A DNA stretch of 64,000 nucleotides from the NCBI RefSeq assembly GCF_988243305.1, contig NZ_OZ547136.1; one strand, given 5' to 3'. The notes beneath the pieces were generated by a model, which ran no database searches, was not told the DNA's origin, and was given only the letters and a program-made list of their open reading frames with translations. Of the stretch, positions 33,340-33,550 are shown one piece after another. The position numbers and the translations under genes were made by a program. Numbering within the stretch: the first letter of the stretch is position 1; each line of letters opens with the position of its first letter.

Positions 33340-33550
33340 CACCGCGGTTTCGCATTCATTGCCTGATGCGACGCTGCCGCGTCTTATCAGGCCTACAAAT
33401 CCGAACCGTAGGTTGGATAAGGCGTTCACGCCGCATCCGACAAACAGCGCCTGATGCGACGCTGCCGCGTCTTATCAGGCCTACAAATCCGAACCGTAGG
33501 TCGGATAAGGCGTTCACGCCGCATCCGACAAACAGCGCCTGATGCGACGT
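33340..33550. repeat. tandem REP/BIME array (about 2.5 units of ~91 bp) between manC and manB
   Basis: direct repeats of gcctgatgcgacgctgccgcgtcttatcaggcctacaaatccgaaccgtaggtcggataaggcgttcacgccgcatccgaca. Confidence 0.9.

Follow-up and report, generated by a model that had tools for sequence, protein, structure and literature searches.

The colanic acid cluster of E. coli analysed here carries a conspicuous tandem repeat between cpsB (manC) and cpsG (manB), and a related array stands between wzxC and wcaK of the same cluster. What kind of element is this, do the two arrays act as recombination partners that remove the genes between them, and what might they contribute to the operon in which they lie? 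We addressed these questions in a window of 64,000 nucleotides (contig NZ_OZ547136.1 of assembly GCF_988243305.1). Gene calls for cpsB, cpsG, wcaJ, wzxC and wcaK were based on NCBIfam scores at the equivalog level and on the RefSeq annotation of matching genomes, and they confirmed the gene context given in a preliminary description of the sequence, which had placed the array in the same operon, between manC and manB of the colanic acid cluster. The genes and RNA elements needed for what follows are these:

27318–28598, minus strand: wcaK, colanic acid pyruvyl transferase (NCBIfam TIGR04006)
28971–30449, minus strand: wzxC, colanic acid flippase (NCBIfam NF007773)
30451–31845, minus strand: wcaJ, undecaprenyl-phosphate glucose phosphotransferase (NCBIfam NF007518)
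31900–33270, minus strand: cpsG (manB), phosphomannomutase (NCBIfam NF011943, 1046 bits)
33275–33324, minus strand: algC RNA motif, within the leader of cpsG (Rfam RF02929, 77.3 bits; gathering score 33.8)
33551–34996, minus strand: cpsB (manC), mannose-1-phosphate guanylyltransferase, 481 aa, stop codon at 33551–33553 (NCBIfam NF012004, 1101 bits; open reading frame; alignment with K-12 CpsB)
47898–47936, minus strand: JUMPstart element upstream of wza, heading the operon of both arrays (Rfam RF01707, 57.3 bits)

No sigma-70-like promoter site was found in window positions 28000–34500, and no intrinsic-terminator-like site (a hairpin followed by a T-run) in either intergenic gap, which is consistent with one long operon. 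A second JUMPstart element (22123–22161, minus strand) was detected ahead of the O-antigen genes. Inside cpsB, a 9-bp in-frame tandem repeat (34683–34711, 3.2 copies) adds an extra Ala-Leu-Ala; CpsB has 481 aa here and 478 in K-12, and strain AH25 likewise has one 9-bp repeat fewer.

Tandem Repeats Finder located the repeat between cpsB and cpsG, hereafter array B, at 33361–33549 with a period of 88 bp, 2.1–2.15 copies, 99% matches and a score of 371. The array is extragenic: the gap of 278–280 bp that holds it runs from the cpsB stop codon (33551) to the cpsG start (33270). It had been described as about 2.5 units of about 91 bp beginning at 33340, which was a little off though essentially right; the actual unit is 88 bp long, 2.15 copies are present and the start is at 33361, positions 33340–33360 being a non-repeat leader. 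The array could be divided into the following parts:

33361–33549, no strand assigned: array B, BIME-2-type, two full 88-bp units and a 13-nt partial one (Tandem Repeats Finder, unit decomposition)
33361–33396, plus strand: Z2-type REP, copy 1, with a CTAC end on the plus strand and so an iREP there (exact Z2 pattern match)
33408–33441, plus strand: Y-type REP, copy 1, with its GTAG end on the plus strand (pattern match with 1 mismatch, alignment)
33449–33484, plus strand: Z2-type REP, copy 2 (exact Z2 pattern match, fold)
33496–33529, plus strand: Y-type REP, copy 2 (pattern, fold, alignment)
33537–33549, plus strand: half Z2 REP, GCCTGATGCGACG, the partial third copy, 1 nt from the cpsB stop codon

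The two full units (33361–33448 and 33449–33536) are the same at 87 of 88 positions. Each is made up of a 36-nt Z2-type REP (GCCTGATGCGACGCTGNCGCGTCTTATCAGGCCTAC), a tail-to-tail linker, an inverted 34-nt Y-type REP (GTAGGNCGGATAAGGCGTTNACGCCGCATCCGNC) and a 7-nt head-to-head linker, and on the plus strand the Z2 REPs end in CCTAC and the Y REPs begin with GTAGG. In array B the two linkers measure 11 and 7 nt; in the array between wzxC and wcaK, hereafter array A, they are 19 and 7 nt long. Y REP copy 1 of array B carries one stem-disrupting change (GTAGGTTGG). Copy 2 reads GTCGGAT...ATCCGAC where array A has GCCGGAT...ATCCGGC, a both-sided change that leaves the stem pairing intact. An inverted-repeat search with arms of at least 20 bp returned nothing at the array; because the stems of REPs are too short and imperfect for such a search, we used pattern searches and folding to identify them. 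Of five Z2 pattern matches in the window, three fell in array A and two in array B, all of them on the plus strand; the Y pattern gave four matches, with 0.00 expected from shuffled sequences in either case. The published iREP-I cleavage site (PMC3333891), cut between TGCC and TGAT, is found at each Z2 REP. Followed along the transcript, the gap between the two genes consists of the stop codon, 1 nt, the half Z2, unit 2, unit 1, a 36-nt spacer, the algC motif and the cpsG start. The algC motif is situated directly upstream of the cpsG start, where it overlaps the likely ribosome-binding site, and it was intact in all alleles inspected.

The repeat between cpsB and cpsG is a BIME-2-type array, one of an abundant non-autonomous palindromic repeat family of E. 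coli. BIME-2 elements consist of inversely oriented z2 and y REPs in many tandem copies that are well conserved at each locus and variable in number between strains (Ton-Hoang 2012, PMC3333891). In array B we found Z2 and Y REPs in inverse orientation, near-identical tandem copies, imperfect hairpins, an extragenic site and a copy number that differs between strains at the locus; the composition, the alternation, the tandem copies and the strain-variable number match the published definition and identify the array as BIME-2. The Rfam model naRNA4 (RF02564), which represents one Y-linker-Z2 unit of the REP325 BIME-2 (PMC4550694), matched array B on the plus strand at 33411–33481 with 72.7 bits against a gathering score of 59.5, and there were two plus-strand matches of 78.0 and 81.9 bits in array A. 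The position has been published as well, in a study that described REPs in the wcaK-wzxC, cpsG-cpsB and wcaA-wzc gaps and found strains to differ by indels that contain REPs (Iguchi et al. 2011, PMC3158064). The REP element at cpsB-cpsG was thus already known, and since it is a textbook BIME-2 already described at this site, there is nothing new in the element itself. A single Y-type REP in the wzc-wcaA gap (43908–43941, minus strand) corresponds to the third REP site of Iguchi et al.

The relation between the two arrays was examined next to the coordinates of the second one:

28660–28943, no strand assigned: array A, BIME-2-type, in the wzxC-wcaK gap, about 2.9 units of 96–97 bp (Tandem Repeats Finder, patterns)

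Tandem Repeats Finder reported array A from 28659, with a period of 96–97 bp, 2.9 copies, 93% matches and a score of 500. Its Z2 REPs begin at 28660, 28757 and 28853, and an inverted Y REP follows each of them. A mechanical open reading frame that runs through the array (28595–28969, minus strand, 124 aa, TTG start) was rejected as a gene, since it is REP sequence. The preliminary description had assigned the repeat to the same family as the units at about 28640–28960 on the strength of a shared core, and the core is real, with matches to the Z2/Y pattern in both arrays. Alignment of the units, which it had proposed as a check of their orientation, showed that they are direct and not inverted: all Z2 REPs lie on the plus strand, and no inverted matches of at least 12 bp were found between arrays A and B. 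A single loop base distinguishes the Z2 REPs of the two arrays, which agree at 35 of 36 positions, or at 37 of 38 if two linker bases are included. Array B is without 8 nt of the tail-to-tail linker (CGAGCACA) relative to array A, and its Y REP and head-to-head linker carry changes particular to the locus. Units below about 80% identity had been considered too diverged to recombine, and on this scale the arrays are borderline, at 78–83% when the 8-bp linker indel is counted and at 87–91% over aligned columns. The longest exact run common to both is 21 bp. Together the two arrays flank exactly cpsG-wcaJ-wzxC.

Direct repeats that bracket these three genes precisely and have 35 of 36 Z2 REP positions in common (37 of 38 with the linker bases) could be homologous recombination partners, and exchange between them would delete or reciprocally duplicate the 4.7-kb cpsG-wcaJ-wzxC segment. 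REPs are said to have been found as join points of duplications by Shyamala and colleagues in 1990; a literature search on REP-mediated duplication join points yielded nothing directly relevant. Within this region REP positions occasionally coincide with similarity or recombination junctions, and in one strain pair the 4.5-kb wzxC-wcaJ-cpsG block forms a separate mosaic segment (Iguchi 2011, PMC3158064). The complete genomes argue against such an exchange. We constructed a synthetic deletion junction leading from the 5' end of wcaK and the beginning of array A through the shared 21-bp block into the last array B unit and the 3' end of cpsB. The two halves of this query are 4.8 kb apart and not joined in normal genomes. 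With at least 80% coverage required, the wcaK-BIME-cpsB junction was detected in 0 of 5,426 complete E. coli genomes (best coverage 55%). The reciprocal duplication junction, for which the query was composed of the cpsG leader, a hybrid unit and the wzxC 3' end, was likewise found in none of the 5,426. The search joins pieces across unit-sized indels, as seen with the 0-unit alleles, and a true junction would therefore have been detected. The minimal processing segment for RecBCD/RecA recombination in E. coli is reportedly about 23–27 bp, a value that goes back to Shen and Huang in 1986, and the 21-bp run falls below this figure, so that uninterrupted identity of such a length is absent from the pair. 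The unit identity of 78–83% counting the indel and the separate signatures that the arrays kept in all 12 alleles inspected point in the same direction.

The sole similarity junction that was mapped, between the window and E. coli AH25 (NZ_CP055256.1), the closest relative, also lies outside any BIME. Positions 7973–33461 of the window are 99.8% identical to AH25, with only 15 mismatches up to 32646; from 32647, inside cpsG, mismatches become abruptly dense, and beyond 33449 the identity is approximately 97.9%. We rejected the BIME as a marker of this break, which is about 700 bp away from array B and, judged from the distribution of mismatches, has the appearance of an edge of a recombination block for the O-antigen region. 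Deletion of manB-wcaJ-wzxC through the two arrays, which the preliminary description had raised together with a check of assemblies for such deletions, thus found no support in the short exact run, the distinct signatures and the count of 0 in 5,426, and we hold recombination of this kind to be very improbable. Judged by the 5,426 complete genomes, the two arrays do not act as recombination partners in nature; rare deletion events between them may occur in culture.

AH25 has wzx/wzy O-antigen genes of the O125 family, besides a second gmd-fcl-gmm-manC-manB set. Between yegH and asmA it has a 746-bp segment with a RelE/ParE toxin and HTH antitoxin pair, in place of which the window has positions 49962–50254 with a single Z2-like REP (about 50196–50232). 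At the window edge, a match to the Sib antitoxin RNA (63708–63856, plus strand; RF00113, 145.9 bits) implies an ibs/Sib type I toxin-antitoxin locus.

Both arrays vary in copy number among strains, from 0 to 3 units at cpsB-cpsG and from 0 to 5 or more at wzxC-wcaK. In K-12, which has 0 units and only TGCCTGATGCGACG beside the stop codon, the cpsB-cpsG gap is 104 bp long. Its length is 191 bp with 1 unit (strain 2017.13.01CC), 278–280 bp with 2 (the window, MMC-J-0020) and 368 bp with 3 (EC21). Unit frequencies were determined in an evenly spaced sample of ranked matches from the 5,426 complete E. coli genomes, in which 51 sampled records held the locus. There were 0 units in approximately 27% of these records, 1 in 63%, 2 in 6% and 3 in 2%, besides one irregular deletion, and at least one unit was present in approximately 73% of the sampled genomes holding the locus. 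The wzxC-wcaK gap was empty in O145 RM12367 (71 bp), and its other sizes were 178, 275 (K-12), 372 (the window) and 563 bp (5 units); a spread sample of the 5,426 genomes contained from 0 to 4 or more units there. In 12 of 12 inspected alleles each array retained its locus-specific signature, a short linker and the GTCGG...CCGAC Y variant for array B and a long linker with GCCGG/GACGG for array A, which means that there was no sign of exchange or homogenisation between them. The arrays expand and contract independently, each within its own locus. The half Z2 REP adjoining the cpsB stop codon was found in every allele examined, the unit-free K-12 allele included. Because every allele ends in this same half Z2, loss and gain of units fit slippage or unequal exchange between tandem units as a route of copy-number change; RAYT-type cutting between TGCC and TGAT would fit equally well.

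Several alleles were irregular. In ETEC4071 the leader end, the Z2 REP and the linker have been lost at cpsB-cpsG, and TW01221 has an internal deletion in array A at a GCGA microhomology. O145 RM12367 shows a clean empty site at array A, which in occupied alleles is flanked by the near-repeat CGTTGCCG/CGTTGTCG. In the coordinates of the other strains' loci, the irregular alleles are found at positions 319–446 (L005), 400–544 (L008) and 400–470 (L007).

What the array might do in the operon was approached by RNA folding. In the operon sense, the copy 2 hairpins of array B have predicted energies of −20.5 kcal/mol (Z2) and −19.2 kcal/mol (Y), and single REPs range from −19.2 to −21.3 kcal/mol. 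The predicted stems have 8+4 bp in Y and 7+5 bp in Z2, with internal unpaired bases in each, and in the full-length fold the half Z2 pairs with the neighbouring Y arm. For the whole cpsB-cpsG intergenic RNA in the operon sense we obtained −130.7 kcal/mol (z = −6.2 versus shuffles), and for the array A RNA −195.6 kcal/mol (z = −11.3 versus shuffles). Since the operon is transcribed from the minus strand, its mRNA would carry four predicted hairpins of −19 to −21 kcal/mol after cpsB.

The best explanation of the locus as a whole, and one that we hold with considerable confidence, is a BIME-2 array with a probable hairpin role in the operon, modulatory and dispensable. REP hairpins shield 3' ends against PNPase and RNase II and leave exonuclease-resistant 3' ends (PMC6061677), and REP325, a BIME-2 within the yjdMN operon, is a partly Rho-dependent attenuator and a stabiliser of upstream mRNA (bioRxiv 10.64898/2026.03.23.713779). 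By analogy with REP325 and with the REPs of malE-malF and hisJ-hisQ, the hairpins between cpsB and cpsG probably block 3'-to-5' exonucleases and so protect the upstream, cpsB-containing mRNA, and they probably attenuate in part the read-through into cpsG-wcaJ-wzxC. From this we infer a modest effect on the ratio of cpsB-proximal to cpsG-distal mRNA, and a dispensable one because K-12, which makes colanic acid, has no unit at cpsB-cpsG. The operon has a JUMPstart element, and RfaH antitermination would probably blunt any Rho-dependent attenuation. The orientation also speaks against the role: the naRNA4 sense is the plus strand and the operon is on the minus strand, which is the opposite orientation to transcription from that of REP325. 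REPs within about 15 nt of a stop codon reportedly reduce upstream translation, a finding credited to Liang, Rudd and Deutscher in 2015. A lowering of cpsB translation by a stop-proximal REP was judged weak and set aside here, since only a half REP abuts the stop codon and the first full hairpin is about 21 nt downstream.

The same observations can be read without a selected host function, the array being a neutral or selfish remnant that persists through RAYT-linked spread and tandem-repeat dynamics. Presence, absence and number of units vary among closely related strains, there are irregular partial deletions (ETEC4071, TW01221) and a clean empty site at array A in O145 RM12367, and K-12 is without any unit at cpsB-cpsG. 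About one quarter of the sampled strains, K-12 among them, are unit-free, which argues for little or no selected function and makes pure neutrality a serious alternative. It accounts less well for a stem kept through the both-sided change from GCCGG...CCGGC to GTCGG...CCGAC, for the retention of at least one unit in approximately 73% of the sampled genomes with the locus and for the real local expression effects seen in experiments with REP325 (bioRxiv 10.64898/2026.03.23.713779), and we give it a substantial chance that stays short of even. Somewhat less probable, though possible, is a role of the arrays as transcription-independent strong gyrase sites that would manage supercoiling in a highly inducible operon of about 20 kb. 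A subset of BIME-2 elements is enriched in gyrase cleavage sites, mainly in Y REPs, and the sites persist after rifampicin (PMC6379681); both arrays have the Y/Z2 composition. However, it is only a subset of BIME-2 elements that is cleaved (PMC6379681), and unit-free alleles are common at both loci; among the Topo-seq supplements of that study, the files in text form make no mention of wcaK, wzxC, cpsG or cpsB.

The Rfam matches allow one further reading, in which the array encodes an naRNA4-like nucleoid-associated small RNA working with HU, since all three plus-strand matches, with 72.7 bits for array B and with 78.0 and 81.9 bits for array A, exceed the gathering score. The model, however, equals one BIME-2 unit, so that any such unit matches it, and the strand that matches runs antisense to the operon, positions 28000–34500 being free of promoter-like sites; on these grounds the small-RNA reading was rejected. 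Operon-sense matches reached only 34–39 bits, and even for naRNA4 a role in compacting the nucleoid was not reproduced (bioRxiv 10.64898/2026.03.23.713779), which leaves this reading extremely improbable.

Under the preferred reading, a BIME-2 array with dispensable, modulatory hairpins, the conspicuous repeat of the capsule operon is ordinary REP/BIME DNA and matters little, and the feared manB-wcaJ-wzxC deletion is absent among 5,426 complete genomes. The copy-number survey, with both arrays changing independently, is a modestly useful by-product, and it agrees with the recent idea that REPs are small tuners of operon expression which vary from strain to strain. A more far-reaching proposal, which we consider doubtful, is that the number of units at both loci is a dial, heritable and reversible, for how strongly proximal colanic acid genes are expressed relative to distal ones. 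If this were true, unit number would set, for example, the ratio of GDP-mannose/fucose supply to WcaJ/WzxC/WcaK-M, and capsule output would be tuned between E. coli lineages with promoters and proteins unchanged.

In REP composition, alternating orientation, tandem copies, extragenic position and strain-variable number, array B differs in nothing substantive from the BIME-2 family as described (Gilson, Bachellier, Hofnung; PMC3333891), and the GTAG/CTAC foot is common to both. The study of Iguchi et al. (2011) resembles ours in that it dealt with both gaps, with REP-containing indel polymorphism and with a link to recombination; it described single 34–36-bp REPs in O157 strains, whereas we describe Z2/Y BIME-2 units and their copy number across 5,426 genomes. 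REP325 (naRNA1-6, yjdM-yjdN) is, like the colanic acid arrays, a tandem Y-linker-Z2 array between co-oriented genes of one operon, and the Rfam model built from it matches them. It differs in its 77-bp units, its six copies and its opposite orientation to transcription, and its effects have been measured, whereas the role in the colanic acid operon is assigned by analogy. The effects of the REPs of malE-malF and hisJ-hisQ (Newbury 1987; Stern 1988) were experimentally demonstrated, whereas those of the colanic acid arrays are predicted only and concern an operon with a JUMPstart element; in both cases the hairpins are intercistronic, and in the colanic acid operon, as in these two, they would be able to stabilise the upstream mRNA.
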